DNA from: an uncultured Lentisphaerales bacterium
GTDB lineage: Bacteria > Verrucomicrobiota > Lentisphaeria > JABSQK01 > UBA12247
Length of the DNA stretch: 64,000 bases
NCBI GenBank assembly: GCA_943788985.1
Contig: CALSSJ010000022.1
Location: 11,020-75,019, forward strand
Direction: 5' to 3'
Shown here: piece after piece, positions 2,769 through 61,544 of the stretch
Layout: each line of letters starts with the position of its first letter
Numbering within the stretch: position 1 is the stretch's first letter
Notes under the pieces: generated by a model
What the model saw: the letters and a program-made list of their open reading frames with translations, nothing else
The model's database searches: none
What the model was told of the DNA's origin: nothing
Position numbers and translations under genes: made by a program

Positions 2769-4460
2769 ATGCGCACGGTCCTCGCTCTTTCCCTGTGTTG
2801 TTTGTTCTCGTTTGCGGACACCGCAATTATCAGCCCCCATGACATTGTGCGGCCAGAAATAGCACATTCTGCGATGATCGCCGCCAGCGAGCCAATCGCG
2901 GCAGAAGCGGGCCGCGCCATTCTGGCCGAGGGCGGTAATGCCGTGGATGCAGCGGTGACGATGGCATTCACGATGGCGGCGACTCTGCCCCGCGCCGGGA
3001 ATCTTGGCGGTGGCGGCTTCATGGTTTTGCGAACTCCGCAAGGAGTGGTCGAAGTGATCGATTTTCGCGAGATGGCACCCGCAGCAGCCACCCGGGATAT
3101 GTTTCTGAATGAGGCCGGTGATGCAGATTCAGAGAAGAGTCGGTTTTCGCATCTTGCAGTGGGGGTGCCCGGTACAGTGGCCGGTCTGGCACTGGCCTTG
3201 GAACACCATGGCACCAAGGATCTGAAGCGGGTGCTGGCACCGGCGATTGAGGCCGCGAACGGCTTCGACGCGCCACAATCGCTGACTGAGGCAATCACCG
3301 CGCGCACTGATCGCCTGGGAGCCAACGCAGCAGCAGCAGCGGTCTTTCTACCGCAGGGCAAAGCACCCCAGCCCGGCAGCCACTTTGCGCAGCCGGACCT
3401 CGCGCGCACCTTGCAGCAGATCGCCGATGGCGGCGCTGAGGCGTTCTACAACGGTCCGTTTGCTGATGCGATCAGCAAGGAGATGGCGGCCAACGGCGGA
3501 CTAGTGACGAAGGCCGACATGGCGACCTACCAGGCCATCGTGCGCGAGCCGATTCGCGGGACCTACCGCGGCTATGACGTGTACTCGATGCCGCCACCGA
3601 GTTCGGGCGGTGTGCATATCGTGCAGCTGCTGAACATTCTTTCTGGCTATGATCTGACAGCGGCTGGGCACAATTCGGCGCAGTCGATTCACTGGCTCGC
3701 GGAGTCAATGAAGTACGCGTACGCAGATCGCTCGAAATACCTGGGAGACACCGATTTTGTCGACGTGCCGATTGAGCAACTGACCAGCGATTCCTATGCG
3801 ACGGCTGTGCGCAGCGGGATCGCAGAGCAGGCTCGGCCAAGTGAGGAGATTCGCCCTGGCCAACTGCTTCCGCCAGAGAGCAACGAGACCACGCACTTCT
3901 CGATCATTGACCATCACGGCTTCGCGGTGGCAGTGACGTACACGCTGAATTTCTCGTTTGGTTCCGGCATCATGGTCCCCGGCACGGGCGTGCTGCTGAA
4001 CAACGAGATGGACGACTTCAGTGCGAAAGCCGGGGTGCCGAACGCGTATGGTCTGCTAGGCGGAGAGGCCAACGCAGTGGAACCAGGCAAGCGGATGCTG
4101 AGTTCGATGAGCCCCACACTGCTGGTGAAGGACGGTCAGGTCTTCCTGGCGACGGGAAGCCCTGGCGGCTCCCGCATCATCACGACAGTGCTGCAGGTCA
4201 TTCTCAATCTGGTGGACCATGGCATGAACTTGCAGGAAGCTGTGAACGCGCCGCGCGTGCATCATCAGTGGCTACCAGATGAGTTGCGCGTCGAGAGTGG
4301 GATCAGCGCGGATACGATCCGGTTGCTGGAGGCGCGCGGTCATCGGGTCGTGGAGAAGACGACGATGGGGGCAGCAGCAAGCGTGTTGCGGAGTTCGCAA
4401 ACCGGCCAACTGCAGGGCGCTGCAGACCCGCGCCGCGATGGGGTGGCTGTGGGGCTGTGA
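2769..4460 (+). CDS. ggt: Gamma-glutamyltransferase
   Basis: Signal peptide, GGNAVDAA, GGGGF, DFRE, ETTHFS autocleavage Thr, LLNNEMDDF, LSSMSPT, GSPGGSRI, ADPRRDG. Confidence 0.97.
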   Translation: MRTVLALSLCCLFSFADTAIISPHDIVRPEIAHSAMIAASEPIAAEAGRAILAEGGNAVDAAVTMAFTMAATLPRAGNLGGGGFMVLRTPQGVVEVIDFREMAPAAATRDMFLNEAGDADSEKSRFSHLAVGVPGTVAGLALALEHHGTKDLKRVLAPAIEAANGFDAPQSLTEAITARTDRLGANAAAAAVFLPQGKAPQPGSHFAQPDLARTLQQIADGGAEAFYNGPFADAISKEMAANGGLVTKADMATYQAIVREPIRGTYRGYDVYSMPPPSSGGVHIVQLLNILSGYDLTAAGHNSAQSIHWLAESMKYAYADRSKYLGDTDFVDVPIEQLTSDSYATAVRSGIAEQARPSEEIRPGQLLPPESNETTHFSIIDHHGFAVAVTYTLNFSFGSGIMVPGTGVLLNNEMDDFSAKAGVPNAYGLLGGEANAVEPGKRMLSSMSPTLLVKDGQVFLATGSPGGSRIITTVLQVILNLVDHGMNLQEAVNAPRVHHQWLPDELRVESGISADTIRLLEARGHRVVEKTTMGAAASVLRSSQTGQLQGAADPRRDGVAVGL

Positions 4461-5473
4461 GGCCGCTGCTGGTCGATCTAGGACTAGTCTCGGGCGGGGC
4501 CGAGCGCAGCTTTGCGGACTTCGCAACTCTGAAGAAGGTGGAGGCGGCGGGCGTGATTTGTGGGCCGGGTGCAGCTGATTTGTTCGAGAGTGAGGGGCCG
4601 CTCGGCGGGCGGCCGTGGTCACGCAGCGTCTCGGGTATCACAAATCTGATGCTGGACTGCGCAAGGCTGCGGCGGCAGGTGGCTACTGCGATTCAGGCGA
4701 CGGGGTGCTCGCTGGTGTATGCGAACGGGATTCGTGCCGGGCTGATCTGTTCGTTGGCGGTGCCGTCGGGGATTCCGCTGGTGTACCATCACCGCGATCT
4801 GGGCGGGCCGACTCTGCTGCTGCGGAGAATTTCTGAGGCGAGTGCCCGTTGGATTGTGGCAAGCGAATTTGTCCGGAAGTCGGTTTGCGGAGTTCACAAA
4901 GCTGTGGCTGTGGTCCCGAACGGGTTTTCGTTCGCCAGCATGAGTGCTGTGCCTGCGGAAGTGCCGGGCGCTGGCCCGTTGGTGGTCATGGTGGCGGATC
5001 TGGTCCCTTGGAAGCGGCATGACTTGTTTGCTGCCTCGGTGGCGCTGGCACGGGAAAAGATACCCCAGTTGCGGGCACTTGTGGTGGGGCGCGAGCGCGA
5101 TGCGGAGCAAGCGCGGGTGGTGCGCCAAGGGTTGGGAGAGATCGAGGTGATCGCCACTGCTGGCGCGCTGCCGTATATCGCCGCGGCGGATGTGCTGATG
5201 TCGCCGACGGACGTGGAGCCGTTCGGCCGGACGGTGATCGAAGCGCTGCATTGCGGGACGCGCGTGGTGGCGAGTGACGTGGGGGGGGCGGCTGAGTTAG
5301 GAGAGCGGTTTGCGGCCATCGAGACGGCGGCTTCGGAGCCGGTTGCGATGTCCGCAGCGTTGCTCGCGCAGCTGGCCAGACCGCGAGTGGTTTCGGACCT
5401 TGCGGAGTTCGCAATCGAGCGTACCGCGGGCAAGGTCTGGGACATTTTTTCAGATTCAACGAGAGGGTCTTGA
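4457..5473 (+). CDS. Glycosyltransferase family 4 (GT-B)
   Basis: GGAERS, VVPNG, PWKRHD, EPFGRTVIEAL, VASDVGG. The GTG start overlaps the ggt stop. Confidence 0.9.
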   Translation: MRPLLVDLGLVSGGAERSFADFATLKKVEAAGVICGPGAADLFESEGPLGGRPWSRSVSGITNLMLDCARLRRQVATAIQATGCSLVYANGIRAGLICSLAVPSGIPLVYHHRDLGGPTLLLRRISEASARWIVASEFVRKSVCGVHKAVAVVPNGFSFASMSAVPAEVPGAGPLVVMVADLVPWKRHDLFAASVALAREKIPQLRALVVGRERDAEQARVVRQGLGEIEVIATAGALPYIAAADVLMSPTDVEPFGRTVIEALHCGTRVVASDVGGAAELGERFAAIETAASEPVAMSAALLAQLARPRVVSDLAEFAIERTAGKVWDIFSDSTRGS

Positions 5474-5477
5474 GATC

Positions 5478-6314: not shown

Positions 6315-6424
6315 CAGCTGGTTCTATCCCACCTTGCTCCGCTGGCATTGGCCAGAATGCACGATAGATTCTTGAGCGCAAGGTGTTCGTTTATAGGGTT
6401 TCGTGGCTCGTAAAGAAGGGAAGC

Positions 6425-9332: not shown

Positions 9333-10643
9333 ATGGCTACGACCTGCATTCTCGATACAAATGTGCTTTTGCACGATCCAGAGGCGCTGGCCTGTTTTGG
9401 CGATAGCACGGTCCTGATTCCAGTGGCAGTACTCGAAGAGTTGGACGCCTTTAAGCGCGATGCGACCGAGTTGGGCCGAAACGCCCGCCAAGTCACGCAG
9501 GCGCTGGATGAGTTGGCTCAAACCGGGAGGCTCGGAGAGGGCGTGGCGCTGCCGGACGGCGGCCTGCTACAGATTCGCCCTGGTGTCGATGAAGACTTGG
9601 TGGGCTGCCACGGCCTCAGCCTAACTCGAAAAGTCGGCCATCAGCTACTGAATCTGGCGCTATATCTCGCCACGCACCGCCCTGAAACCGCGGTGATCCT
9701 GGTGACCAAGAATGTGAACCTGCGGCTGAAAGCTGACGCTCTGGGCATCTTCGCCGAGGACTATGAAGTGGGGAGAAGAGCGGAGGCGCTGACCGAGCAA
9801 TACATGGGCTGGCACAGAGTAGACGTGTCTGCAGAATTTGTCGACGCGTTCTATGCCAACGGGAAAGCAAGCCTGGAAATTCCCGAGGCAGCGCCCGGCG
9901 AGTACGCGATTCTGATGGTGGACGGCAAACCGCAGGCCGCCGGAAAAGTGGGAAATGGAGGCATCTACACCACGCAAGCACCGGATGACGGGATCTGTGG
10001 GATTGAGGCGCGAAATTTTGAACAGCAATGCGCAATCGATGCCTTACTCGATGACTCGATCAAGCTGGTCACGCTGAGCGGTCGGGCGGGTACCGGAAAA
10101 ACTTTGGTGGCCGTCGCCGCTGGCCTTCATAAGGTCATTCATGAATCGGTGTACACGAAATTACTGATCTCTCGCCCGACGCTGCCGATGGGGCGCGACA
10201 TCGGTTTCATCCCTGGCGACGTCCATGAAAAGATGCGGCCGTGGATCCAACCGTTGTATGATGCGATCGAGTTGATTCGCGATCAGGATCGTCGCCGACA
10301 TCGGCGCACGCTGCCGCCGGACATCATGGAATCAGATGATATTGGCATCGAACCGTTGACCTACATTCGCGGGCGAAGCATCCCGAAGCAATTTTTTATC
10401 ATTGATGAGGCGCAGAATCTTACCCCACACGAGATGAAGACGGTGATCACGCGGGTGGGGCAGAACAGCAAGGTAATCGTTACCGGTGACCCAGAGCAGA
10501 TAGACAACCCGTATGTCGACCTGCATTCTAACGGTTTTTCATATCTGGTGAGTCGCTTTCGGACGCAGCCAATCTCTGCCCACATTGTGCTGGTCGCGGG
10601 TGAGCGTGGGGAACTTGCGGAGATCGCATCCAGAATCATGTAG
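9333..10643 (+). CDS. PIN-domain/PhoH-family ATPase (PhoH2-type)
   Basis: ILDTNVLLHDP PIN domain, GRAGTGKT Walker A, GFIPG, YIRGRS, IIDEAQN, GDPEQID. Confidence 0.95.
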   Translation: MATTCILDTNVLLHDPEALACFGDSTVLIPVAVLEELDAFKRDATELGRNARQVTQALDELAQTGRLGEGVALPDGGLLQIRPGVDEDLVGCHGLSLTRKVGHQLLNLALYLATHRPETAVILVTKNVNLRLKADALGIFAEDYEVGRRAEALTEQYMGWHRVDVSAEFVDAFYANGKASLEIPEAAPGEYAILMVDGKPQAAGKVGNGGIYTTQAPDDGICGIEARNFEQQCAIDALLDDSIKLVTLSGRAGTGKTLVAVAAGLHKVIHESVYTKLLISRPTLPMGRDIGFIPGDVHEKMRPWIQPLYDAIELIRDQDRRRHRRTLPPDIMESDDIGIEPLTYIRGRSIPKQFFIIDEAQNLTPHEMKTVITRVGQNSKVIVTGDPEQIDNPYVDLHSNGFSYLVSRFRTQPISAHIVLVAGERGELAEIASRIM

Positions 10644-13950: not shown

Positions 13951-14973
13951 ATGCGTAACCTACTCTTTATCTGTATTTCCCTAGTGCTTTTTGGGTGCTC
14001 CAAGCCATCGGCGACGCCTGCGGCAGAGATTACGGTCTACACCCACCGGCATTATCCCGCTGACCAGGCACTATTCGACGCGTTCTCCCGAGAGAGCGGT
14101 ATTACGGTAAACGTGCTCAAAGCCAAGGCCGATGAGTTGATCAAACGCCTCGAGATCGAGGGTGCGGAATCCGCAGCGGACGTCCTGATCACGGTAGACG
14201 CCGGCCGCTTGGTGCGCGCCAAAGAGAAGGGGCTTCTCCAGGCAGTCCAGTCGGATACCATCTCAGAGCGGATTCCGGCGGCGATGCAGGATCCAGACTC
14301 GCAGTGGTTTGCCCTCACAAAACGCGCACGCGTCTTGGTGTATGCCAAGGACCGCGTGGATGTAGCCACATTGAGCAGCTACGAGTCGCTCATGGATGAG
14401 CAATGGCGCGGGAGGATTCTCGTGCGTTCTTCGCAGAACATCTACAACCAATCTTTGCTTGCTTCGATCACCCACCATCACGGTGGGGAGGCCGCAGAAG
14501 CGTGGGCCAAGGCAGTTGTGGCCAACATGGCCCGTACGCCCAAGGGAAACGATCGCGACCAGATCCGGGCCGTTGCCGCTGGGAAAGGTGACCTGGCCAT
14601 CGTGAATACCTACTATCTCGGCCTGTTGCTCAATGCGGATGATCCAGCAGACCAGGCTCTTGCCGGACACATGGGCGTCTTTTTCCCCAATCAGGGCGAT
14701 CGCGGCACCCACATCAACGTCAGCGGGATCGGCGTCACGGCACACGCTCCCAATCGTGAAGGGGCGATCAAGCTGATCGAATTTCTGGCGCGCAAAGACT
14801 CCCAGGAAGTATTTGCCCAGTCCAACTACGAATACCCGGTAAACCCGCAGGCTCAGGCAGGCGAGTTGCTTCAATCTTGGGGCGAGTTCAAGAGCGACAC
14901 GGTCCCACTCACGCTTCTGGGCGAGTTGAACACCGAGGCCGCGCAAACCTTCGATCGCGCCGGCTGGCGGTGA
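13951..14973 (+). CDS. Fe(3+) ABC transporter substrate-binding lipoprotein (FutA/FbpA family)
   Basis: Lipobox LFGC, YTHRHY, TVDAGRL, RSSQNIYNQSL, GNDRDQ, NTYY, HINVSG, NYEYP. Confidence 0.95.
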   Translation: MRNLLFICISLVLFGCSKPSATPAAEITVYTHRHYPADQALFDAFSRESGITVNVLKAKADELIKRLEIEGAESAADVLITVDAGRLVRAKEKGLLQAVQSDTISERIPAAMQDPDSQWFALTKRARVLVYAKDRVDVATLSSYESLMDEQWRGRILVRSSQNIYNQSLLASITHHHGGEAAEAWAKAVVANMARTPKGNDRDQIRAVAAGKGDLAIVNTYYLGLLLNADDPADQALAGHMGVFFPNQGDRGTHINVSGIGVTAHAPNREGAIKLIEFLARKDSQEVFAQSNYEYPVNPQAQAGELLQSWGEFKSDTVPLTLLGELNTEAAQTFDRAGWR

Positions 14974-16583
14974 ACGTTGCGGTCGCGCCCGCCGCAGGCT
15001 ACCCACGGTGGCGGCAGCGGCTGTCCCCTTGGTCTGTGGGGGCTGCCGCTATGATAAGCGTCCTGCTGGTGCCCATTGCGGTGGTGGCGCTCAGCATGTT
15101 GGGCCGCTCCTCTCCGACCTGGCAGCACATCTGCGACACTGTCCTGACCACCTATCTGTGGAACACAGCGCTGCTAGTTGCAGGCGTAGGGGCTTGCACG
15201 CTGGTGATCGGCGTTTCCTGTGCCTGGTTGGTTACGTTCTACCGCTTTCCAGGTCGCGCCGTTCTGTCCTGGGCGCTGGTTTTGCCGTTTGCGATCCCCA
15301 CCTACATCGCCGCCTACTGCTATGCCGACCTGCAGGATTTGGTGGGGGTGGATATGATGAATCTTCCGGGCGCAATCTTGGTGGTGAGCTTGGTGCTCTA
15401 TCCCTATGTCTATCTGATCACATGCAGCACGCTCCAGGGGCAGTCCGGGCGCATCTTGGAATCTTCCCAGAGCCTGGGCCGGGGCGCCGCCTACTCGTTC
15501 TGGCGATTAGGATTCCCCATAGCACGCCCGGCAATCGTGGGCGGCATGACCCTAGTGACGATGGAGGTCCTGAACGAATACGGAGCGGTTCACTACTACG
15601 GTGTGGACACCTTTACCACCGGGATTTTTAAGGTCTGGTACGGCATGGACGACACCCAGGGCGCGATGCGCCTGGCGGCCACATTGATGATGCTGGTGCT
15701 GGCGCTACTGTTGCTGGAACGGCTGCAGCGAGGGCGCAAACAATTCACCACCTGCGGCAGCGACTATCGCCCCTGCATGCCAGGTCAATTACGCGGTTCG
15801 GTGAGCTGGCTGGCGGCAGGCTGGTGCACCTTACCAGTCTTGCTCGGCTTTCTGTTTCCCGTAGGCCAACTGCTGATCTGGCTGAAACAAAGCGGAGCTT
15901 CGTCGTTTGGCGCTGGCTTTGCGAAGATCGCAGGGCAGAGCTTTGTCTTAGCCAGCTGCGCAGCGCTCACAACGGTGATCGTGGCTGTGATCCTGGCCTA
16001 CACCGTCCGTCTCCACCGCAGCCGCCTAATCACTGCGTTATCCAAGGCATCTGCCCTCGGCTACTCGATGCCCGGCGCGGTTATCGCGATCGGCGTGATG
16101 GTGACAGTCGTCGCTGCCGACCGAGGTGTGTTGCGACATGTGGCGGGGTTCTTCGGCGCCAAGCCAGGGTTGATTCTCACCAGCTCCATCGTCGTGCTGC
16201 TGTTCGCCTACGTACTCCGCTATCTGACGGTTGCCGTAAACCCGATAGAGGCGGGCTTCGAACGCCTCTGCGGCTCTATGGACGAAGCCTCCAGAGCGCT
16301 CGGGCACTCCCCGCTCAAGACCCTGCTGCAGGTGAACTTGCCACTGGCAAAGAGCACTCTCATTGCTGCTGCGCTGCTGGTGTTTGTGGACGTGCTCAAA
16401 GAGCTGCCACTTACCTTGATCCTGCGCCCGACCAATTTCGAAACCCTAGCGACTAAGACCTTCGAACTCGCAGGTGAAGAGATGATTGCGCAGTCCGCAA
16501 TTGGTGCTCTGCTAATCGTAGCGACTGGCATTGTCCCGATCCTGATCCTCGACCGGCTGCTCTGCAGCAAGCGCCCGACGTGA
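14970..16583 (+). CDS. Fe(3+) ABC transporter permease (FbpB family)
   Basis: Duplicated transmembrane permease with FPGR, LYPYVYL, ARPAIV and DVLKELP. The GTG start overlaps the SBP stop. Confidence 0.93.
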   Translation: MNVAVAPAAGYPRWRQRLSPWSVGAAAMISVLLVPIAVVALSMLGRSSPTWQHICDTVLTTYLWNTALLVAGVGACTLVIGVSCAWLVTFYRFPGRAVLSWALVLPFAIPTYIAAYCYADLQDLVGVDMMNLPGAILVVSLVLYPYVYLITCSTLQGQSGRILESSQSLGRGAAYSFWRLGFPIARPAIVGGMTLVTMEVLNEYGAVHYYGVDTFTTGIFKVWYGMDDTQGAMRLAATLMMLVLALLLLERLQRGRKQFTTCGSDYRPCMPGQLRGSVSWLAAGWCTLPVLLGFLFPVGQLLIWLKQSGASSFGAGFAKIAGQSFVLASCAALTTVIVAVILAYTVRLHRSRLITALSKASALGYSMPGAVIAIGVMVTVVAADRGVLRHVAGFFGAKPGLILTSSIVVLLFAYVLRYLTVAVNPIEAGFERLCGSMDEASRALGHSPLKTLLQVNLPLAKSTLIAAALLVFVDVLKELPLTLILRPTNFETLATKTFELAGEEMIAQSAIGALLIVATGIVPILILDRLLCSKRPT

Positions 16584-17617
16584 GCGCGGCCCTCGTCCTC
16601 CGCGACGTCACCAAGCAATTTCGCAACGCCGAACACGCAGCCGTCGCGAATGTCTCGCTAGAGGTCTCCGTAGGCGAAGTGATCACGATTCTGGGCGAGA
16701 GCGGTGGCGGGAAGTCCACACTCTTGCGTTTGATCGGTGGTTTTGAGCTGCCGGATTTAGGTGAGATCCTGCTGAACGGAGAGACTCTGAACAGTCCGCA
16801 GATGTTCTGCGCGCCAGAGTCGCGGGGGATCAGCATGGTGTTTCAAGGGCATTCGCTCTTTCCCCACATGACGGTGCGGGACAACATCGCCTACGGACTC
16901 CATCGGATGAAATCCAGCGCGCGGGATCAGGAGATCGAGCGAATGCTCACGCTGACCGAGTTGTCCGGCTTGCAGCAGCGCTACCCACATGAGCTATCCG
17001 GCGGCCAACAGCAACGCGTCGCGATCGCCCGCTCTCTAGCCCCAAAACCAAGCGTGATGCTCTTGGACGAGCCGTTCAGTAGTTTGGATCGCACACTGGC
17101 AACCCAGATTCGCAACGACCTAGCAGATCTGATGCGGCGCAGCGGTGCGACCACGTTGTGGGTTACGCACACGACCGAGGACGCCATGGCGATCAGTGAT
17201 CGCATCGCGGTGATGCATCAGGGGCGATTGGTCCAACTTGGCACTCCGGAGTCAGTTTTCTGCCGTCCGCAGACCCGGTACGTCGCCGAGTTATTGGGTC
17301 CGGCCAATCTGCTGCGCGTGCAGCAGCAGGATGGCCAGCGATTCTGCCCGGCGTTGGCCGCGATGGTGGAGACCGAGTTGCCCACGCCCACACATGCTGT
17401 GGTACGACCAGATGACATCGTTTGCGAACTCCGCAAAGACGGGCCAGCCACCGTGCGGCGGACCGCTTTCCAAGGCACGTTTATGGAGCTAACAGTCGAC
17501 AGCGCCAGCGAGCAGGTGCGGGTCCACTACCGCGGGCCGGAACGTTTCGCGGTTGGCGATTCTGTGGCGCTGTCTGCCCCAGCCCAGCGGGTCTGGGTAA
17601 TTTCGGATCCGGGCTAG
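16580..17617 (+). CDS. Fe(3+) ABC transporter ATPase (FbpC family)
   Basis: GESGGGKS, LSGGQQQR, LLDEPFS, TOBE-like C-terminus. Confidence 0.93.
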   Translation: MSAALVLRDVTKQFRNAEHAAVANVSLEVSVGEVITILGESGGGKSTLLRLIGGFELPDLGEILLNGETLNSPQMFCAPESRGISMVFQGHSLFPHMTVRDNIAYGLHRMKSSARDQEIERMLTLTELSGLQQRYPHELSGGQQQRVAIARSLAPKPSVMLLDEPFSSLDRTLATQIRNDLADLMRRSGATTLWVTHTTEDAMAISDRIAVMHQGRLVQLGTPESVFCRPQTRYVAELLGPANLLRVQQQDGQRFCPALAAMVETELPTPTHAVVRPDDIVCELRKDGPATVRRTAFQGTFMELTVDSASEQVRVHYRGPERFAVGDSVALSAPAQRVWVISDPG

Positions 17618-33962: not shown

Positions 33963-34036
33963 TACCCCATGGTGTAACGGTAGCACAACTGGTTTTGATC
34001 CAGTCAGCCTAGGTTCGAATCCTAGTGGGGTAGCCA
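33963..34036 (+). tRNA. tRNA-Gln (anticodon TTG)
   Basis: Acceptor stem TACCCCA/TGGGGTA, anticodon arm ACTGG-TTTTGAT-CCAGT, GGTTCGAATCC T-loop, encoded CCA. Confidence 0.97.
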
Positions 34037-38884: not shown

Positions 38885-38968
38885 AATCCGCATGTACTTT
38901 TCGCGCGCGGGAGGCATCACCCGTGCTACTTTACTCAATTACAGGTGAATCAGGACGCGGGAACGACT

Positions 38969-47150: not shown

Positions 47151-49040
47151 GTGCAGTATAGCGAGCGACCATGCCCTAGGCTGTGGGCGCTGTGGATCCT
47201 TGGGTTGGCGGTGCCTGTTCTGCTCTTGCTCAGCGGACAGCCCAGTGTATCCGAGCACGAAGCGAAGCTGGCGGTGCGGGCTGCGGTTCTGCTTGACCAT
47301 GGCATTTGGGGGAACGACGCGATTCTTGGCCAGGAATCAGCAGGGGTCTGGCTCCAAGACTGGTTGACGGCGGGCGTGGCTGCACGCTTTGGCTTTAGCG
47401 AATTCGGCGTGCGCTTGCCGCAGACGTTGCTGATTTTGCTTTTGGCTGCGATCTGCGCCTGGGGAAGTGGCAAGGTCGCAGGCATTCAGGCGGGGGCCGT
47501 GTCCGCGGCAGCAGCTGTCAGCAGCGGCTATTCATTTCTGTTGATCGATCGTGCTGGCAACGAACTGCTGGCGTGTGTCTTGCTGAGCTTTGCCTGGCTC
47601 TGTTGGTTTCGGTTCAGTCGAGAGAAGAAGCGCTGGAATTATGCCTGGCTGGTGGCGCATACATGCGTGTTATTTGCGATCTTCGCAATCGGTCCACTTG
47701 CCTTGGTGATGTTCTATGTCCCGCTGATTTTTCTGCGGCGCCCGCTGAAGATTCGCCGGCGGCTCGGGCAGGCGGATCACTTTGTCAGCCTGCTGGCTCT
47801 GATTGGCTTTGTCTTGCTCTGGATTTTCGGGCACACCTCGGCGGATACCACGCTGGACGCGATCGGAGATACCTTGGAGTGGCGATTCGGGTTCTGGCGG
47901 AGCCTGGCCCATCTGGCCGCAATGCCGCTGGTGGCGGCAATCGGATTTTTGCCGTGGAGCTTTCTGGTCTGGCCCGGCTTTTGCCATGCTTTTCGGCGCT
48001 TGGAGCAGGAGGCGGTCTTCGGTGCATTGCTTCGGACTCTCATTCTGGCAACGGCTGCGCTCGGCTGGCTGTTCCCCACGCGGGGCATGACCCTGGCCCC
48101 CGCGCTTGGGCCGCTCTGTATGTTGGTCGGGCTGAATTATGAGATGCTGGTGCGGCGCCATGGCAAGCAACTGCTGCTGATCCCACGGGTACTCGCCGTG
48201 GCTCAGGTCCCGCTTATTGGTGCGGTGCTGGTCGCGAGTTTGGTGCATGAGCCGCCCGTGGTGCCGCGGAGTGGGCTTGAGATGTTGACGAGCGCGACCG
48301 CTGTCATCGGCAGCCTGCTGCTGGCCGCTGCTATCCACCGGCGCAAGGTGGTCGGCCCGATCTGGCTGCATGTGTTGATCGGCGTGGTGGCGCTGAAGCT
48401 GGCGTGGTGCGGGAGTATGCAAATTTATCGCGGCCACACCGGAAGCGAGGCCCGAGCTCAAGGGCTAGTCTGGCGCAGTCACGTGCCAGAAGGCGAGCCG
48501 GTGCATTGGCTGCTGAAGCCGGGCCGGTTCCCGGTGGAGACATACTACCTGCGCCGTGAATGCCGATTCGTAGGGGCTGAGCGGGTGTTGCCGCGCACCG
48601 GCAACAAGGTCTTCGCGCTGGCGCGTGAGCAGCCGGTGACGCCAGGGCGCAACTGGCAGGTCGCGGTGGCCGGAGATGACCACCGGCCCACTCTCTGGCA
48701 GGGGCAGCTTGAACTCTTCAAGATCCGACCACCAATGCCACTAGTGGGGCGTGATGCAGGCGGAACTATGCAGGTGGCGACTCAGTTTGAGCTGGTCAAT
48801 CAACAGCAGCATACCTTGCACATCACAGCGCTGGAGCCTGAAGGCGCTGCGGTGTTCGCAACCGGCGTGCTACCAGCAACCATCGAGCCAGGTAAGGCCG
48901 TGCTATTTACCTTGAGAATGAACAAGGAGCGGACCGAGTCGCAGCCTGGCAGGCATGCGGTACGAGTCATGCTGTCCGTAGATGGCGAGGAAATGCAGCG
49001 CTTGATTCATGTCCAGTTGCACTCGCCAAACGTTGAGTAG
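47151..49040 (+). CDS. ArnT/PMT-like (GT-C) membrane glycosyltransferase
   Basis: Multi-TM protein with FGFSEFGVRLP and FLPWS, plus a soluble C-terminal domain. Confidence 0.7.
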   Translation: MQYSERPCPRLWALWILGLAVPVLLLLSGQPSVSEHEAKLAVRAAVLLDHGIWGNDAILGQESAGVWLQDWLTAGVAARFGFSEFGVRLPQTLLILLLAAICAWGSGKVAGIQAGAVSAAAAVSSGYSFLLIDRAGNELLACVLLSFAWLCWFRFSREKKRWNYAWLVAHTCVLFAIFAIGPLALVMFYVPLIFLRRPLKIRRRLGQADHFVSLLALIGFVLLWIFGHTSADTTLDAIGDTLEWRFGFWRSLAHLAAMPLVAAIGFLPWSFLVWPGFCHAFRRLEQEAVFGALLRTLILATAALGWLFPTRGMTLAPALGPLCMLVGLNYEMLVRRHGKQLLLIPRVLAVAQVPLIGAVLVASLVHEPPVVPRSGLEMLTSATAVIGSLLLAAAIHRRKVVGPIWLHVLIGVVALKLAWCGSMQIYRGHTGSEARAQGLVWRSHVPEGEPVHWLLKPGRFPVETYYLRRECRFVGAERVLPRTGNKVFALAREQPVTPGRNWQVAVAGDDHRPTLWQGQLELFKIRPPMPLVGRDAGGTMQVATQFELVNQQQHTLHITALEPEGAAVFATGVLPATIEPGKAVLFTLRMNKERTESQPGRHAVRVMLSVDGEEMQRLIHVQLHSPNVE

Positions 49041-50142: not shown

Positions 50143-51376
50143 TGACCACTATTTGAAACTTACAGCAGGCTACTTATTTCCCGAGATTGGCCGCCGCGTC
50201 AACGCGTTCGCAGAGGCCAACCCGGATGCCCCGATCATTAAATTGGGAATCGGCGACGTCACAGAGCCATTGCCGCCGGCGATCGTCGAGGCGATGCATA
50301 CTGCTGTCGACGAAATGGCCACACTCAATGGCTTTCATGGCTATGGCCCAGAACAGGGCTACGGCTTTCTCCGCGAACTCATTGCCGAACACGACTTCCG
50401 TGCGCGCGGCTGTGAGATTGAGCCAGATGAAATTTTCGTGTCCGACGGCAGTAAATGTGACACGGGAAATTTTCTGGACATTCTCGGGCCAGGCAACACA
50501 ATCGCGGTCGCCGACCCAGTTTATCCCGTCTATGTCGATACAAACGTGATGGTTGGCAACACAGGCTTTGCGAACTCCGCAGGCGAGTATGATGGATTGG
50601 TCTATTTGCGGTCCACCGTGGAAAACGCGTTCACGCCGGACTTGCCCGATCACCCCGTGGATATCATCTACCTATGCTATCCGAACAACCCGACAGGTGC
50701 CACTGCCAGTAAAGAGTACCTGCAGCGCTGGGTTGAGTTTGGGCACAAGCATGGTTCGCTCATTCTTTTTGATGCGGCCTATCAGGCATTCATTCAGGAT
50801 CCGGATATTCCCCGCTCCATCTACGAGATTGACGGCGCCCGCGATGTGGCTGTTGAGTTTCGCAGCTTTTCAAAGAATGCCGGATTTACCGGCACTCGTT
50901 GTGCCTTCACCGTCGTGCCAAAAACGGTCACTGGCCGGGCTAAGGATGGCAAGAAACATGCCTTGCATGGGCTGTGGAATCGCCGGCATTGCACAAAGTT
51001 TAACGGCGTCTCATACATCGTGCAGCGCGGTGCTGAAGCGGCGTACAGCGATGCTGGTAGGCAGCAGGTGCAGGCGCTGGTGGACTTCTACATGGTGAAC
51101 GCAGCGATCATTCGTAAAAACCTTACGGAGCTTGGCTTGGCCGTGTACGGTGGTGAAAACGCGCCGTATGTCTGGTTGCAGGCACCCAATGGGATGAGTA
51201 GCTGGGATCTGTTCGACAAGCTACTGGACGAAACCCACGTGGTGGGTACACCGGGTAGTGGATTTGGCACTGCTGGCGAGGGCTTCTTTCGCCTGAGTTC
51301 GTTCAATACGAGGGCCAATGTCGAGGAAGCCATGAGGCGACTTCGCGAGAACCTGAGCCTGACTGAGTTGGCCTGA
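50129..51376 (+). CDS. dapL: LL-diaminopimelate aminotransferase
   Basis: [45 protein letters not shown]. Confidence 0.96.
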
Positions 51377-56689: not shown

Positions 56690-57994
56690 TCAACGGCCGC
56701 TGCAGGATTGGCAAGGCCGCACCGGCTGCTTGATGATGAAGAGGTTCTTTGCGGACTCCGCAAAGTTGGCATCCTGATCCACGGCGAAGGCGAAGGTTGT
56801 GGCGATGCTGCGCGTGAGCGGCGGCTCGGCCAGTTTCATGAACTGTTGCCGGTCGAGCTGCGCAGGGAGCTTGATCCAAGCTGAATCTCTAACGCCGCGG
56901 TAGAGCCCACTGGTGACCGTGCCGTCACCGCCGCGCATGAGACTGAGGTCGCCGCCGGAATTCATCCCGAATTGCAGGTCCCCCCAGAGGGAGGAAGCCG
57001 GCAGGTTCCCGTGGTCCGCTGCAAATACCCGCCGTGGATGCCCGGTTCTCGCTACCTGCTGCAGTGCGCGAAGTTCGTGCTCGGTGTACGAGAGGCGGTC
57101 GGCAAGAAGCCACCCTTGCACCAGCAGGCCGTAGCGCTGGCCCAGGTCCTCCAAAAGCTCCGTCGCGAATTCTGCACGCCGTGGCGCAACTGACGCACAC
57201 CACTGAGCATCAGCCGCTGGCATGATGTCAAGGTAGACGATGAGCTGAACTGCCTGGTCACGCAGGGCCAGGCCAAGCTCTAGGATGAAGTCCTGCTCGG
57301 AGGTTCTTCCCGGCAGTATGCCATCAATGGCTGTGCTCGGGCCGGGAAAGTACCACTCGCGGCTGCCGACGGGCCAGACTACCCAGCCAGCCCCGCTCGC
57401 ACCAGCCTGGCTTGCAAACTCCGCAACATCGAAATGCTCGAGCGACAGGTGGGCAACAGCAAATTGGGGGGAAATGCCATAGCGAAGCTCTTTTAGCCAC
57501 CCGCTCCGCTGCCGGGCGTCTGCGCCAGCGAGCCGTACAGGCTCCGAGCGTCCGTGTTGGATTAGCTCCAGCCCCAGAATTTTGGTTTCTGATTCGGGTA
57601 GGGCCTGTTCAAGCCGCAGCCGCCATGGCGCCGGTCCCTTCTTGAGGTGGCCAAGTACAACTGTCTGCCAGCCGCTGTCGGCAGTCTGGTAGCTGCGGGA
57701 GATGCCCTGGCTCTCTGCGATTTGGATCTTGACTCCGGCGGGCAGTTGGACGATGGCCACCGCGTGGTAGGTTCCCGGCTCGGGATTGAACTCAAGCCAC
57801 TGTCTTGGGTCGGTCCAGCCACTGACCCAGCGTTTGTTTTCAGACGGCGAGTGCACGGCGGTCAGGCCATCGCCGCCGCAATCCGCGGCGTCGGCATATA
57901 GGATGACGCGGTCCTGAGCGGCGGCCGCACTGGCCAGAATGAGGAGAAGGGCAGCTGTGTGGCTGGAAATCATAGGCTTTGTCAGCTGAATCAT
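56690..57994 (-). CDS. Secreted CBM-like plus GH29 (alpha-L-fucosidase)-like TIM-barrel protein, divergent
   Basis: Signal peptide, GWTDPRQWLEF beta-sandwich, FDVAEFA...GAGWVVW...YFPGP, LGQRYG. Confidence 0.5.
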   Translation of the reverse strand: MIQLTKPMISSHTAALLLILASAAAAQDRVILYADAADCGGDGLTAVHSPSENKRWVSGWTDPRQWLEFNPEPGTYHAVAIVQLPAGVKIQIAESQGISRSYQTADSGWQTVVLGHLKKGPAPWRLRLEQALPESETKILGLELIQHGRSEPVRLAGADARQRSGWLKELRYGISPQFAVAHLSLEHFDVAEFASQAGASGAGWVVWPVGSREWYFPGPSTAIDGILPGRTSEQDFILELGLALRDQAVQLIVYLDIMPAADAQWCASVAPRRAEFATELLEDLGQRYGLLVQGWLLADRLSYTEHELRALQQVARTGHPRRVFAADHGNLPASSLWGDLQFGMNSGGDLSLMRGGDGTVTSGLYRGVRDSAWIKLPAQLDRQQFMKLAEPPLTRSIATTFAFAVDQDANFAESAKNLFIIKQPVRPCQSCSGR

Positions 57995-58097
57995 GACGAT
58001 ATCTGAGCTAGTTTGCTTGAAGTGAACGTGGTGAGCAGTAAGCTACAGCCTTGATACACAATTGATGCACTAATCTGTTTGTTTCCCGAGGTCCTCC

Positions 58098-58580: not shown

Positions 58581-58588
58581 GCCGCCGC

Positions 58589-59770
58589 TTACAGACCGTA
58601 GTAGTCGACGGCTCGTCCGGCCGCAAATGTGGTTTCCACGGCAGGCAACTGCACGAACCCGTCCGCAGCGCCAAATCCTGCCCAATCCCCACTGTTGCTG
58701 AGCCGCACTTGGACCGCGCCTTGCGGGCTAAGTCTAACGGGTAGAAAGCAGGTCAGGGCCGATACGAACTCCGCAGCCTCTGCCAAAGCGACTGGAAGCT
58801 GCCGTGGCTGTCGCTGAAACGCGGAATCCAGGAGCGGAATACCATAGCGGCGAAAGGCAGTGACAGCCGAGACTGGATTGCCGGGAAGGCCCAGGACTGC
58901 GGCGGAATTCTGGCTGTGCCAGCCTGCCCACATGGGCTTGCCAGGGCGTTGGAGGACGCCGTGAAACAGGCGCTCGACGCTAAGCTCGGCCAAAACCTCG
59001 GGCACGTAGTCGTACTTCCCCTTGGAAACACCACCGGAAAGCACCACCAAATCGGCTGTCTGCAAGGCGGTTTCAATGCATTGGCGCATGATGGTCTGGT
59101 CATCGGGGACGACCTCGACGGACACGTTCGGAAAGCCATGGCTCCAAGCCAGCGCTTGAATGGCGCTGCCATTTGACTGCCGCAATTGATGTAGGGCGGG
59201 GGTTGCCTCAAGGGCAACCAGTTCGTTGCCACTGGCTAGCACGGCAATGCGCGGTGCTGCGACGGAGACTTGGGTGACACCGGTAGAGGCGAGGACCGCG
59301 AATTGCGAACTCCGCAACTGTTGGCCGGGACTAAGGAGGCGGTCCCCAGCGCTGTAGTCGGCTCCTCCGGGGTGGATGCAGTCTCCCACAGCGCATGGCT
59401 CGGTTATCTGTACGGTGTCCCCTGCGCGGGAGATATTCTCGACCGGGACGACGCAATCGGCGCCACTCGGAAGTATGGCACCAGTCATGATCTCAAGGCA
59501 GACGTTTCCTTTCGGAAGGGCCGGGGGTACCTCGCCAGCGCCCACTGCTCCGACGATGGTCAATGCGTGTTCCGCGAACTCCGCGCGGAGCGCGATCCCA
59601 TCCATGCGCACGACCGATGCTGCGGGGAGCGCTCGATCCGCTGCGATCGGCTCGGCAAGAATTCGGCCGACAGCTTGCGCTGCGGCTACTTGTGCGACTC
59701 GCGCATTCATTGTGATCTGACCGAGAAGTCGGTCGGCTTCTGCTACCGATATCATCTGCGCATTCTCCAA
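58589..59770 (-). CDS. moeA: Molybdopterin molybdotransferase MoeA
   Basis: MDGIA, IMTGA..P.GAD.VV, SGNEL, SGGVSKG, RPGKP, LPGNPVS. Confidence 0.95.
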   Translation of the reverse strand: MENAQMISVAEADRLLGQITMNARVAQVAAAQAVGRILAEPIAADRALPAASVVRMDGIALRAEFAEHALTIVGAVGAGEVPPALPKGNVCLEIMTGAILPSGADCVVPVENISRAGDTVQITEPCAVGDCIHPGGADYSAGDRLLSPGQQLRSSQFAVLASTGVTQVSVAAPRIAVLASGNELVALEATPALHQLRQSNGSAIQALAWSHGFPNVSVEVVPDDQTIMRQCIETALQTADLVVLSGGVSKGKYDYVPEVLAELSVERLFHGVLQRPGKPMWAGWHSQNSAAVLGLPGNPVSAVTAFRRYGIPLLDSAFQRQPRQLPVALAEAAEFVSALTCFLPVRLSPQGAVQVRLSNSGDWAGFGAADGFVQLPAVETTFAAGRAVDYYGL

Positions 59771-59883
59771 GTTCGTCTCAACCCACGATAATAGGCCTGT
59801 TTCCGCAAGCCTTCAAGGGCTGTTGCACATCGTCGTTGGCCGTGCAGGTTACAGGCTCGACCAACCCGAGTTGAATTGGATGA

Positions 59884-61047
59884 TTGCCCGTGATTACGAC
59901 GGCTGAAGCCTTGGATGAGTTTGTCACACGCGCGCTTGAATGCGACGCGGTAGGCGTGGATACGGAGTTCTTCTGGGAGCGAACATTTGCGCCCATACTT
60001 GGCCTGATTCAGGTTTCGCTGGGCCCTGATGATTGCTACTTGATCGATCCGCTTGCGCTTAAGGATCTGACCCGTTTCGGAGACCTTTTGGCCGATAAAG
60101 GGACGGTGAAGATTCTGCACGATGCGCAGCAGGATCTGGCGATTCTGCAGCGATCGTGCGGGCAGGAGCCGCGCAATATTTTCGATACGCGGCTGGCGGC
60201 CGGCTTTGCGGGGCTGGCATCGACGCTTTCGTTGACCAATTTGTTGAATGAACTTCTGGGCGTGGACCTAGAGAAGGGCGAGCAGCGCTCGAACTGGCTG
60301 GCGCGGCCGTTGCGAGACAGCCAGTGCGTGTATGCGTCTGCCGACGTTGCCCACCTGCACCAGGCGCGCGAGATTCTGCTTGAGCGGATTGGAGACAACG
60401 CTGCGTGGCTTAACGAGGAACTGGCGACACTGGATACGCCAGGTTTGTATGCTGTGGAAACGCCAGAGGCGTATTTTAAGCGCATGCGTAAAGGGCGGTC
60501 AATTCCTGCGCGTGCTCGTGCGATTCTGCGCGAGTGTGTGCTTTGGCGCGAGACAGAGGCGGCGCATCGGGACCGGCCGCGCTCCCACGTGCTCAGCGAC
60601 GATATTCTGGTGGCGATCGCTCGCGCGGAGCCGAAGGAGTCGGCAGACCTGCGGGTTGTGAAGGGATTTTCCGAACGCGCAGTGCAACGCTACGGCAGAC
60701 ATTTGTTGGGATTGGTCGAGAGCGCAGTGGCAACTGATCCAGCCACGTGGCCGGTGCCAGACCCGCAGGCCAAGGATTATGACTTGTTGCAGGAACGGAC
60801 CAAGCTGGCGCTGGCGGCGATCAAGCCTCGTGCCGAGGAGGTGCGCGTAGACTCGGCTCTAATGGGCGCGCGCGCGGCGATCCAAAAGGTGATCCTGATG
60901 GGAGAGTCTGCGGATCCCGCAGATCATCGGATTCTGGCAGGCTGGCGCGCTGAATTCTTGACGCCAGCCATTCGCGAGTTGCTGGTGGGACAGCCAGCGA
61001 TGGCGTTGGCCGGGGCGGGGCGGAGACGCTCGCGCATGCGAAAATGA
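59884..61047 (+). CDS. rnd: Ribonuclease D
   Basis: DTEF, LIQV, FDTRLAA, SNWLARPL, YASADV, HRDC domain. Confidence 0.93.
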   Translation: MPVITTAEALDEFVTRALECDAVGVDTEFFWERTFAPILGLIQVSLGPDDCYLIDPLALKDLTRFGDLLADKGTVKILHDAQQDLAILQRSCGQEPRNIFDTRLAAGFAGLASTLSLTNLLNELLGVDLEKGEQRSNWLARPLRDSQCVYASADVAHLHQAREILLERIGDNAAWLNEELATLDTPGLYAVETPEAYFKRMRKGRSIPARARAILRECVLWRETEAAHRDRPRSHVLSDDILVAIARAEPKESADLRVVKGFSERAVQRYGRHLLGLVESAVATDPATWPVPDPQAKDYDLLQERTKLALAAIKPRAEEVRVDSALMGARAAIQKVILMGESADPADHRILAGWRAEFLTPAIRELLVGQPAMALAGAGRRRSRMRK

Positions 61048-61544
61048 GCACACGCTGTACGCTCGGATTAGCGGTCGTCCTAGCGGCGACGCTGTCAGGC
61101 TGCGCGCTCGAATGGGAGGCGGTGCAGGGGGAGATTAGGGAGCAGTTTCCGGACGTCCGGCAACTGACCATCGAGGAGCTGCGAGCGTTGCAGGCCGAAG
61201 ACGGGCGTGAGATCATGCTGCTGGACGTGCGCGCCATCGAGGAGTATGCGATCAGCCATCTTCCGGGTGCGCTGCATACACCGACTGAGGAGTCCGCACT
61301 TTGCGAACTCCGCAAATCCTCATCGGCAACCCTTGCGGTGCTGTACTGCTCGGTTGGTTGGCGCTCGTCGCAGATGGCATCGTCCCTGGAGGCGTCCTGC
61401 GAGCTTGCCAATCTTGAGGGGTCAATTTTCGCCTGGGCCAACGCGGGCTATCCGCTGGTTGGAGAGGATGGCCCGGCCCGGGCTGTACACCCGTATAATG
61501 AACGCTGGGGGGCTCTATTGAAGCGAGAGCTTCGCGCAGACTGA
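61044..61544 (+). CDS. Rhodanese-like lipoprotein
   Basis: LSGC lipobox, LLDVR..EY..SHLPGA, YCSVGWRS, NLEGSIFAW. Confidence 0.9.
   Translation: MSTRCTLGLAVVLAATLSGCALEWEAVQGEIREQFPDVRQLTIEELRALQAEDGREIMLLDVRAIEEYAISHLPGALHTPTEESALCELRKSSSATLAVLYCSVGWRSSQMASSLEASCELANLEGSIFAWANAGYPLVGEDGPARAVHPYNERWGALLKRELRAD

Follow-up and report, generated by a model that had tools for sequence, protein, structure and literature searches.

The genome of this Lentisphaeria bacterium contains a hyper-abundant bipartite palindrome of 15 bases (TTGCG, five bases, CGCAA). The observation is confirmed and turned out to be larger than first seen. The conserved unit is TTGCGR-N3-YCGCAA with the core TGCG-N5-CGCA; the motif ranks top among the k-mer anomalies of the host genome and is found on all of its contigs. 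A literature search found no description of it in print. Our preferred but tentative reading (probability about 0.4) is that the motif may mark DNA as self or kin, in the manner of USS/DUS/HIP1, and be read by a putative homodimer. The interpretation given in the original prediction is, as a whole, partly supported.

Within the window, i.e. the whole 64-kb stretch of DNA analysed, TGCG-N5-CGCA occurs 37 times (Table 1) as compared to 0-2 times with spacers of N3, N4, N6 and N7. Exactly 20 sites match TGCGRANTYCGCA, each where the original prediction had placed it, whereas 100 dinucleotide-preserving shuffles of the window averaged 0.05 matches and never exceeded 1. The tallies of the variants were also correct (TGCGAACTCCGCA or its reverse complement, 10; TGCGGACTCCGCA, 4; TGCGAAGTTCGCA, 2; TGCGGACTTCGCA or its reverse complement, 2; A/T centre, 2), as was the symmetry of the flanks, with T before 18 of the 20 copies and A/G after 19. 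Allowing at most one mismatch to TGCGRASTYCGCA, 36 matches were obtained versus 0.53 in shuffles. Sixteen of the 17 copies said to have one mismatch were recovered; the one at 60909 has two, though its TGCG-N5-CGCA core is intact. The 13-15 bp word with a RASTY centre is real but had been drawn too narrow: RASTY is the local dialect of one lineage and the bipartite TTGCGR-N3-YCGCAA is the wider unit.

Table 1 TGCG-N5-CGCA sites in the window. Basis: exact, exact-match scan; core, core scan; mismatch, mismatch scan.
Position	Centre	Gene or remark	Basis
2813..2825	GACAC		core + mismatch
3028..3040	AACTC	commonest form; gamma-glutamyltranspeptidase	exact
4387..4399	GAGTT	gamma-glutamyltranspeptidase	exact
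4513..4525	GACTT		exact
5344..5356	ATGTC		core + mismatch
5401..5413	GAGTT		exact
10616..10628	GAGAT		core + mismatch
14163..14175	GAATC		exact
14423..14435	TTCTT	atypical, may be chance	core
15920..15932	AAGAT		core + mismatch
16487..16499	CAGTC		core + mismatch
17423..17435	AACTC	frame 0 (Cys codon first)	exact
18758..18770	AACTC		exact
20745..20757	GAGTT		exact
23689..23701	ATCTG	atypical, may be chance	core
31698..31710	GACTC	perfect palindrome; SNF2 helicase	exact
32185..32197	AAGTT	SNF2 helicase	exact
32611..32623	AACTC	SNF2 helicase	exact
33081..33093	AGGTC	SNF2 helicase	core + mismatch
33549..33561	GACTC	SNF2 helicase	exact
35090..35102	TGCTG	atypical, may be chance	core
38203..38215	AAGTT		exact
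38776..38788	GAGTA		core + mismatch
39256..39268	AACAT	Ham1-aminotransferase fusion	core + mismatch
39293..39305	AGGAT		core
41590..41602	AAGTC		exact
41938..41950	GACTC		exact
42170..42182	AATTT		exact
47410..47422	CTTGC	atypical, may be chance	core
47675..47687	ATCTT		core + mismatch
48848..48860	GTGTT		core + mismatch
50569..50581	AACTC		exact
56750..56762	GACTC		exact
59304..59316	AACTC		exact
59693..59705	ACTCG	atypical, may be chance	core
60909..60921	GATCC	two mismatches	core + mismatch
61302..61314	AACTC	frame 0	exact

In the host genome, 1749 copies of TGCG-N5-CGCA stand against 144-183 at N3, N4, N6 and N7, and the strict form (TGCGRA and TYCGCA at a spacing of 1) has 898 copies versus 0-6 at spacings of 0 and 2-15. 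Lone half-sites are not enriched once full sites are masked (TTGCGA, 2556 versus 2415 expected; TTGCGG, 3702 versus 3423). This anatomy, with strict spacing, independent half-sites and no excess of lone halves, fits the proposed target of a dimer; the protein itself is putative.

The motif is a DNA-level word that arises by substitution in unrelated genes and in spacers. The 733 copies in called coding sequences remain enriched under a codon-preserving null, since 20 shuffles of synonymous codons within genes gave a mean of 14.7 (maximum 21) and 20 shuffles of codon order a mean of 1.4. The reading frames of strict copies in genes are distributed as 493/126/113, the preferred one being frame 2 (Ala-x-x-Ala). 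That all copies lie inside coding sequences holds for the window only in a wider sense, as 16 of the 20 are in crude gene calls and the other four (4513, 14163, 41938 and 42170) in ORFs 150 aa or longer; genome-wide, 166 of 898 copies are outside called genes. There is no strand bias relative to transcription (324 versus 370) and no bias relative to GC skew in the host genome, and a polarity like that of Chi or KOPS is not supported. Alignment of orthologues shows the sites as substitutions at weakly conserved residues, 26 of 32 being ungapped. The motif has altered the composition of the proteome: the tetrapeptides AEFA, ANSA and AESA are 5.8, 5.2 and 3.6 times above expectation and mostly motif-encoded.

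Site density in the host genome follows local GC (Spearman 0.55), with 1.07 sites per 10 kb where GC is <0.56 and 7.0 where it is 0.60-0.62. Few sites lie in a low-GC accessory island, a co-oriented sulfatase/glycosidase stretch with a DDE transposase on contig C12, whose first 86 kb have one site and whose first 62.7 kb (54.4% GC) have none. Short divergent (promoter) spacers are depleted as well, with 0.79 versus 2.03 sites per 10 kb of coding DNA. On a Mu-like phage contig the tag is about as dense as in the host, and a single early HTH gene has four perfect copies. Distances between sites range from random to clumped (CV 1.0-1.7), with no evident regularity. The earlier idea of a domain-restricted site like those of matS, Noc or ParB is not supported: sites are present on every host contig, and in a near-complete relative 95 strict sites are evenly spread over the three large contigs with no macrodomain pattern. 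Contig 2 of the host genome has one tandem-repeat gene with five copies at a 201-bp period.

Within the class Lentisphaeria, the motif is abundant (40 copies or more, and 5x the genome's own control or more) in 33 of 201 sampled genomes and at background in the remainder; in 101 genomes from other classes, strict copies number 0-2 per genome. Centre preferences vary by lineage: in a low-GC lineage the spacer of the bipartite palindrome is nearly free, and GC-rich lineages have an added specific centre. The tag is common to many families, with lineage-specific "dialects", and has decayed to background elsewhere; it is completely lost in many lineages, even inside families, and no replacement is visible. 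Among three congeners (75-81% identity), 50-75% of the sites are kept at orthologous positions (15/24, 15/20, 11/21, 11/18, 8/16 and 9/15), versus 1-16% in the matching phase-preserving-shift controls (19/126, 17/108, 7/113, 7/99, 5/87 and 1/72), and 12 of 23 triple-aligned sites vary. Between families the sites are turned over: 0 of 32 (host genome) and 0 of 11 (G032) are shared.

The reading as an uptake or recombination signal is drawn from the likeness to USS, DUS and HIP1. A homodimeric protein would read the tag on double-stranded DNA, each subunit contacting TTGCGR in the major groove with about 9 bp between contacts and the centre sensed only indirectly. Tag-bearing DNA would be favoured in uptake and/or recombination, and biased transmission together with selection may spread the tag and maintain it in long-resident, recombining core DNA. 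USS and DUS, the uptake sequences of Pasteurellaceae and Neisseriaceae, are alike in having hundreds to thousands of near-exact copies, equally on both strands and mainly in coding DNA, a reading-frame bias with inflated encoded peptides, a location at weakly conserved residues, scarcity in genes without homologues and lineage dialects (PMC2817400; PMC3630211). The dependence on local GC and the scarcity in such an island have reported counterparts in USS (PMC2817400). The cyanobacterial HIP1 (GCGATCGC) is also a hyper-abundant palindrome (15-300 fold over-represented), kept between genomes, within and between ORFs, spread at phylum or class level with some lineages lacking it, and debated as to nucleoid structure versus uptake (PMC5861425; PMC13756078); an uptake function is now argued for (PMC13756078). 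However, HIP1 is a different word, and the motif described here is 6-N3-6 bipartite, has no embedded methylase site and gives no hint of regular spacing. To our knowledge, all established uptake sequences, USS and DUS included, are asymmetric single words, and their sole known receptor is ComP, a monomeric pilin. A bipartite palindrome suggests a dimer of the cytoplasmic type, which counts against uptake, and the motif is class-wide rather than family-level. The class does have uptake hardware, with PilT in 59 of 59 genomes and ComEC in 53 of 57, but tag-bearing and tag-free genomes possess it alike, so that it shows no association with the tag; the host assembly, 83.6% complete, yielded no ComEC.

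The main rival, itself doubtful, is an abundant, sequence-specific nucleoid-associated dimer that binds the sites for compaction, tethering or segregation. It could be particularly useful in a class mostly without ParB, and the fact that ParB_N is missing in the host and in 41 of the 57 genomes examined favours it, although this absence fails to track the tag; the same result gives no support to a ParB-family reader. The operator-like anatomy with unenriched lone half-sites argues for such a protein, as do the positions kept by congeners, which fit selection for a binding function equally well, and the depletion in divergent spacers fits avoided interference with transcription. Phage Mu employs the host protein IHF within its early region, and a host DNA-binding factor accounts for the four perfect sites in the early region of the Mu-like phage no less well than an uptake tag does. 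matS/MatP, NBS/Noc, SBS/SlmA, parS/ParB and the KorB operator are likewise palindromes of 12-16 bp with a degenerate centre, read by dimers; yet such organiser sites come in tens of copies, far below the 1000-1700 near-exact sites per genome seen here. Irregular spacing, the lack of a macrodomain pattern and the complete loss of the tag in many lineages also speak against a nucleoid role, which has been proposed for HIP1 too (PMC5861425).

It is unlikely that the motif is a functionless by-product of sequence-biased repair or gene conversion. The correlation with local GC, the gain and loss of sites among congeners and the many lineages without the tag would agree with this. Biased repair, VSP repair for instance, shifts the frequencies of short words by no more than small factors, however, whereas here a 15-bp unit at one exact spacing is in 10-300 fold excess and its sites are conserved 4-10 times above control; moreover, a sequence-specific dimeric enzyme, as yet hypothetical, would still be required. 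Less likely still, an orphan DNA methyltransferase with HIP1-like or AhdI-like bipartite recognition would act on the motif, giving it an epigenetic or self-marking role. Such palindromes resemble the sites of Type I-like methylases whose specificity subunit is half-size and dimeric, and the nearly free spacer of the low-GC lineage is in agreement with that, but the specific centre of the GC-rich lineages is not read by such enzymes. Of 27 motif-rich genomes, 5 (G005, G013, G008, G089 and G188) gave no match to PF02384, and the host genome has only broken pieces of it; no PF01555 was detected in G000, G028 and G025, no PF00145 in the near-complete G028, and no PF02086 in any of the 5 genomes tested. 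A shared methyltransferase is not supported, as none of these four families was found in all carriers among these incomplete MAGs. Methylase sites occur within HIP1, whose effect on transformation depends on methylation (PMC13756078). Hardly tenable is the view that the copies derive from a longer mobile repeat or reflect a repeated peptide. The five copies in the tandem-repeat gene of contig 2 and the favoured Ala-x-x-Ala frame would suit it, but no flank is conserved past +-2 bp, all three frames and non-coding DNA are occupied, in orthologues ordinary residues stand opposite the sites, with no regular insertion, and the densest genes are unrelated metabolic genes. This bears out the predicted DNA-level signal and refutes a mobile repeat or peptide for all copies except a few in the tandem-repeat gene.

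The genome of the window organism (G000; assembly of 4.58 Mb in 48 contigs, 58.3% GC, 83.6% complete) carries a class-specific, hyper-abundant, bipartite palindrome, TTGCGR-N3-YCGCAA, which is written at the level of DNA and maintained by selection or biased transmission. The original prediction had listed 20 exact copies of TGCGRANTYCGCA in the window, and the same 20 were recovered, against a mean of 0.05 in 100 dinucleotide-preserving shuffles. The symmetry of the flanks was also seen again, with T preceding 18 and A or G following 19 of the 20 copies. Allowing up to one mismatch to TGCGRASTYCGCA, the window holds 36 matches (0.53 in the shuffles); 16 of the 17 one-mismatch copies claimed are among the genuine ones, and the copy at 60909 has two mismatches. 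That all copies lie in coding sequences is true of the window, where 16 of the 20 fall within crude gene calls and the other four inside ORFs of at least 150 amino acids, but not of the genome, where 166 copies lie outside called genes. The host genes are indeed unrelated (a gamma-glutamyltranspeptidase, an SNF2 helicase, a Ham1-aminotransferase fusion and others).

Genome-wide, the strict motif (TGCGRA, one base, TYCGCA; the RASTY-centred form noticed first) is present in 898 copies, of which 850 have C or G in the centre, and the strongest k-mer anomalies under a maximal-order Markov model are sub-words of the motif. As many as 733 copies are in called coding sequences (crude ORF/codon-score calls; 3013 genes, 78.5% coding). 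This enrichment withstands the codon-preserving null on which the prediction depended: shuffling synonymous codons within genes left a mean of 14.7 copies (maximum 21 in 20 runs), and shuffling the codon order left 1.4. The tenfold gap between the two nulls indicates that the amino-acid sequences themselves are bent by the motif. AEFA occurs 173 times (29.8 expected; 120 motif-encoded), ANSA 130 times (25.2; 85) and AESA 174 times (48.3; 102). Copies are even along the gene length and occupy frame 2 in 493, frame 1 in 126 and frame 0 in 113 cases, the last beginning with a Cys codon; since all frames and also non-coding DNA carry the motif, a peptide motif was rejected. There is no bias for the sense strand (324 vs 370) and no orientation skew of the asymmetric forms relative to the local GC skew (231/232 and 185/202), which argues against a polar signal of the Chi or KOPS type. 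Beyond positions -2 to +14 the base composition is that of the background, which shows that no longer repeat surrounds the motif, and a REP- or MITE-like mobile element, one of the outcomes that would have undone the prediction, can be dismissed, also because most copies are not intergenic. One gene on contig C2 looks like a tandem array of a 67-residue repeat with the motif in each unit, which slightly inflates the count.

The enrichment is limited to a pair of half-sites at one exact spacing. TGCGRA and TYCGCA are found one base apart 898 times, but only 0-6 times at spacings of 0 and 2-15, and everted and direct arrangements do not exceed background (1-21). Lone half-sites, counted after masking of full sites, are at expectation (TTGCGA 2556 vs 2415; TTGCGG 3702 vs 3423), and the four strict duplex forms (424, 239, 109 and 78 copies) are, by our own arithmetic, close to what independent half-sites predict (416, 247, 117 and 70). 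In the window, TGCG-N5-CGCA occurs 37 times and the N3, N4, N6 and N7 spacings 0-2 times; the same core stands out in G000 as a whole and in four of the five related Lentisphaeria genomes tabulated, not in G004 (see table), and in a 400-kb sample of G028 (41% GC) TTGCG-N5-CGCAA is the top inverted repeat. In symmetrised logos, the frequency of T at -1 is 0.42-0.72 and that of a purine at position 4 is 0.76-0.91. Position 5 clearly favours A in G000 (0.74) and G032 (0.86) but only weakly in the low-GC genus (0.43), and the C/G centre is specific only in GC-rich lineages. Taken together, the logos define a conserved half-site TTGCGR and the unit TTGCGR-N3-YCGCAA. The RASTY-centred motif of 13-15 bp that had been predicted is thus real as a signal, but as a unit it is a dialect. 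Because only the exactly spaced pair is enriched, the anatomy is that of a homodimer-type site, and from it we infer a homodimeric reader, a protein that would make two major-groove contacts about 9 bp apart.

Coordinates, counts and densities of the features discussed. G000 is the genome of the window organism, other G-numbers are related Lentisphaeria genomes, C-numbers are contigs of G000 and L305 is a viral contig.
Feature or sample	Coordinates (strand)	Value	Comparison
Window	G000:C22:11020-75019		
Ham1-family and class-III aminotransferase domains in one ORF	window 38945-40825 (+)	626 aa	
tRNA gene	window 33963-34033 (+)		
Longest site-free stretch	C12:1-62,719	54.4% GC	
Island, by its looks recently acquired	C12:1-86,000		
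Five motif copies, 201-202-bp period, at the edge of or inside the next gene	C2:110464-111281		
Large gene, apparent tandem 67-residue repeat	C2:111007-114295		
16S rRNA gene	C7:36031-37540	1560.8 bits (bacterial model)	
16S rRNA gene	C36:143064-144568	1478.6 bits (bacterial model)	
N6_Mtase pieces	C36:36244-38483		
Four perfect motif copies	L305:1231-1782		
Local GC <0.56 (10-kb bins, G000)		1.07 sites per 10 kb	
Local GC 0.56-0.58 (10-kb bins, G000)		2.41 sites per 10 kb	
Local GC 0.58-0.60 (10-kb bins, G000)		4.33 sites per 10 kb	
Local GC 0.60-0.62 (10-kb bins, G000)		7.0 sites per 10 kb	
Coding DNA		2.03 sites per 10 kb	
Short convergent spacers		2.37 sites per 10 kb	
Short tandem spacers		1.39 sites per 10 kb	
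Short divergent spacers		0.79 sites per 10 kb (5 sites in 63 kb)	
G000, whole genome		TGCG-N5-CGCA 1749	N3, N4, N6, N7: 144-183
G028 (400 kb)		TGCG-N5-CGCA 78	N3, N4, N6, N7: 1-3
G025 (400 kb)		TGCG-N5-CGCA 81	N3, N4, N6, N7: 0-3
G034 (346 kb)		TGCG-N5-CGCA 94	N3, N4, N6, N7: 2-4
G032 (392 kb, 66-69% GC)		TGCG-N5-CGCA 51	N3, N4, N6, N7: 2-12
G004 (same order as G000, 38% GC)		TGCG-N5-CGCA 2	N3, N4, N6, N7: 0-2
G000		TTGCG-N5-CGCAA 594	control 9
G034		TTGCG-N5-CGCAA 712	control 5
G028		TTGCG-N5-CGCAA 550	control 4
G199		TTGCG-N5-CGCAA 446	control 0
G124		TTGCG-N5-CGCAA 365	control 1
G028 to G034		15/24 sites kept	control 19/126
G034 to G028		15/20 sites kept	control 17/108
G028 to G025		11/21 sites kept	control 7/113
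G025 to G028		11/18 sites kept	control 7/99
G034 to G025		8/16 sites kept	control 5/87
G025 to G034		9/15 sites kept	control 1/72

The motif is found in many families of the class. Among 201 class genomes, sampled from their groups, the strict motif reaches at least 20 copies in 33 (up to 850), 7-18 in eight and at most six in the rest, with controls of 0-11; by our own count, TTGCG-N5-CGCAA is present in at least 40 copies and at least five times the control in 33 of the 201. In 101 genomes of the other classes of the phylum only 0-2 strict copies were found. Abundance changes even within families: in f9, the genera g15 and g18 have 216-712 copies and g21 has 3-6; in f24, the counts are 131 vs 7 and 1; in f29, they are 446 vs 14 and 6. 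Contrasts of this kind set g73 apart from g64 (f24), g97 from g91 and g95 (f29), g57 from g53 (f16) and g50 from g34 (f14). In the large families f6, f7, f11 and f15 the counts hardly exceed background, apart from a three- to fivefold excess in a few genomes of f7 and f11. Apparently, the motif is an old trait of the class that was lost many times. A 400-kb sample of the tag-less G004, of the same order, contained no other hyper-abundant palindrome, and a metagenome scan for close relatives gave hits of at most 51% protein identity (39% full-length), with the motif in none of 80 loci. In G009, again of the same order, a high control count had suggested a second motif; this is one exact 15-mer, AACGCCTTCAGCGTT, which makes up most of the 50 listed among 94 sites, often lies within a few hundred bases of contig ends and probably marks where a repeat element unrelated to the motif ends.

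Along the chromosome, sites are found on every G000 contig at 0.74-7.2 per 10 kb, with at least 1.7 per 10 kb on 45 of the 48 and 0.7-0.9 on C9, C35 and C37 (26-44 kb). Density increases with local GC (Spearman 0.55), far above the effect of base composition, which is about 1.3 fold by our own arithmetic. The longest site-free stretch is at the start of C12, where the following 23 kb have one site only. The first 80 kb of this contig contain 45 co-oriented genes, and in the ten of these that were scanned the matches were to sulfatases, GH95/GH78/GH20 glycosidases, esterases/lipases, phosphatases/phosphoesterases and a single DDE transposase, with sulfatases and glycosidases in the majority; the region looks like a recently acquired polysaccharide-degradation island. 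The rpoB region, too, is inside a site gap (22.9 kb). In the ten densest genes that were checked, the products belong to ordinary metabolism and have no common theme. Short divergent spacers are depleted in sites, which speaks against a promoter operator, and close pairs (15-52 bp) follow no rule beyond multiples of 3, so that terminator-like pairs or a preferred pair spacing were rejected as well. Inter-site gaps on the 48 contigs are random to clumped, with no sign of regularity, as judged from a CV of 1.0-1.7. In the near-complete G028, 95 strict sites are scattered over all three contigs with a mean spacing of about 56 kb and a largest gap of about 290 kb, as expected of a random spread. 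A restricted domain of the matS or Noc kind, which had been considered, is therefore not supported; neither confinement to nor exclusion from a macrodomain was seen on the three contigs of G028 or the 48 of G000. The two 16S rRNA genes of G000, on contigs of normal motif density, have unequal scores and may be divergent copies or reflect slight bin contamination.

Sites are maintained over short evolutionary spans and turned over across long ones, as follows from their conservation between congeners and its absence between families. Three syntenic species of one genus (75-81% nucleotide identity; 15-24 sites alignable per pair) were scored for the core being kept at the orthologous place, with eight positions shifted by +-30, 60 and 90 nt as control (see table). 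In the closest pair, G028-G034, conservation of the core exceeds that of all but one of the five spacer positions; at greater distance the values for single positions, from 15-21 sites, overlap between core and spacer. In the three-way alignment, which covers 23 sites, 11 are common to all species and 12 vary, eight of these being singletons, some of which are unlike both relatives at several core positions. Between families, G000 was compared with 392 kb of G032 (106 gene pairs, 43% amino-acid identity, 36,334 aligned columns), and not one of the sites, 32 in G000 and 11 in G032, was common to both at aligned positions. As 26 of the 32 G000 sites align without gap to ordinary, mostly different residues, an origin by insertion was rejected. 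Two G000 sites have the same peptide in the relative, written in other synonymous codons.

What is the motif for? We prefer, at a probability of roughly 0.4 and by analogy, a tag of self or kin DNA, by which motif-bearing DNA would be favoured in uptake and/or recombination. This preference comes from the match with reported uptake sequences and HIP1. Like USS and DUS, the motif has hundreds to thousands of copies in both orientations, in coding DNA and at poorly conserved residues, and is scarce in accessory genes; the traits reported for uptake sequences in PMC2817400 that it matches are copy number, poorly conserved residues, peptide inflation, scarcity in accessory DNA, dialects and repeated loss. 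Like HIP1, described as conserved and palindromic in PMC5861425, it is a hyper-abundant palindrome kept at orthologous positions between related genomes, and a recent paper on HIP1 (PMC13756078) makes the case for an uptake signal. It differs from HIP1-type words, which embed methylase sites, in that none of the four methyltransferase families searched is common to the carriers tested. The near-universal ComEC (53 of 57 genomes, not found in the 83.6%-complete assembly of G000) and PilT (59 of 59) occur in motif-bearing and motif-less genomes alike and do not discriminate.

Ranked next after the kin tag, and already somewhat doubtful, is a site for an abundant nucleoid protein, for which the dimer anatomy and a phage lead, the Mu-like contig L305, can be adduced. 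The motif lacks the macrodomain pattern of matS, Noc, SlmA and ParB sites, and a ParB-family reader is not supported, since ParB_N was found neither in G000 nor in 19 of the 25 motif-rich genomes tested. It is present in 16 of 57 genomes (6 of 25 motif-rich, 10 of 32 motif-poor), with canonical-looking scores in just two, and the class seems to be largely without ParABS. That the palindrome is the functionless product of a repair bias is improbable. Even less should be expected of a methylase target, because none of PF02384, PF01555, PF00145 and PF02086 is common to the carriers tested, which are incomplete MAGs: PF02384 is missing from five of 27 motif-rich genomes, PF01555 was not found in G000, G028 and G025, PF00145 not in the near-complete G028, and PF02086 in none of five genomes. 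The only N6_Mtase (Type I/IIG methylase, PF02384) matches of G000 are six short pieces, one with an in-frame stop, which look like a decayed gene or gene pair.

Perfect copies were also seen in viral contigs, one each in 36 (a raw count, without chance expectation) and two in one more. L305 encodes a MuA-like transposase, a MuB-like protein, Gam and a weak GemA-like match below Pfam's cut-off, and has TGCG-N5-CGCA at host-like density, eight in 13.4 kb vs 0-1 at other spacings. Two 18-bp-spaced pairs of perfect copies lie in an early gene that weakly matches an HTH domain, and each of the four copies encodes Ala-Asp-Ser-Ala. The HTH proteins of L305 have no homologue in G000 and were rejected as reader.

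To our knowledge, very few hyper-abundant words have been described in genomes (USS, DUS, HIP1, Chi, KOPS, REP), and each has led to a piece of DNA-handling machinery. The kind of thing is already known; new are this word, its bipartite dimer-type architecture, its host group and its occurrence without a shared methylase or tracking competence gene. Literature searches by taxon, palindrome, motif strings, uptake sequence or general terms found no description of the motif in the texts covered, the string matches being only primer-like strings in eukaryote papers. The motif is strong (10-300 fold excess, 3-6 fold proteome distortion), apparently old and class-wide, and its host belongs to the PVC group, about whose chromosome biology and gene exchange little is known and in which ParB is mostly missing. 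It is tempting, though rather bold, to speculate that TTGCGR-N3-YCGCAA is the site of an undiscovered Lentisphaeria homodimer family with more than 1000 sites per chromosome, which would serve either a palindromic bipartite kin-DNA uptake/recombination signal, the first of its kind, or a ParB-independent chromosome-organising code of PVC bacteria, with dialects co-evolving with the reader. Repeated loss, even within families, provides natural contrasts for finding the reader. In addition, the motif offers an easy means of binning Lentisphaeria contigs and of recognising DNA that they acquired recently.

Two minor features of the window may be added. The Ham1-family (non-canonical NTP pyrophosphatase) domain and the class-III aminotransferase domain in one ORF are an unusual fusion, and nothing in the window other than the tRNA gene matches Rfam at gathering score.
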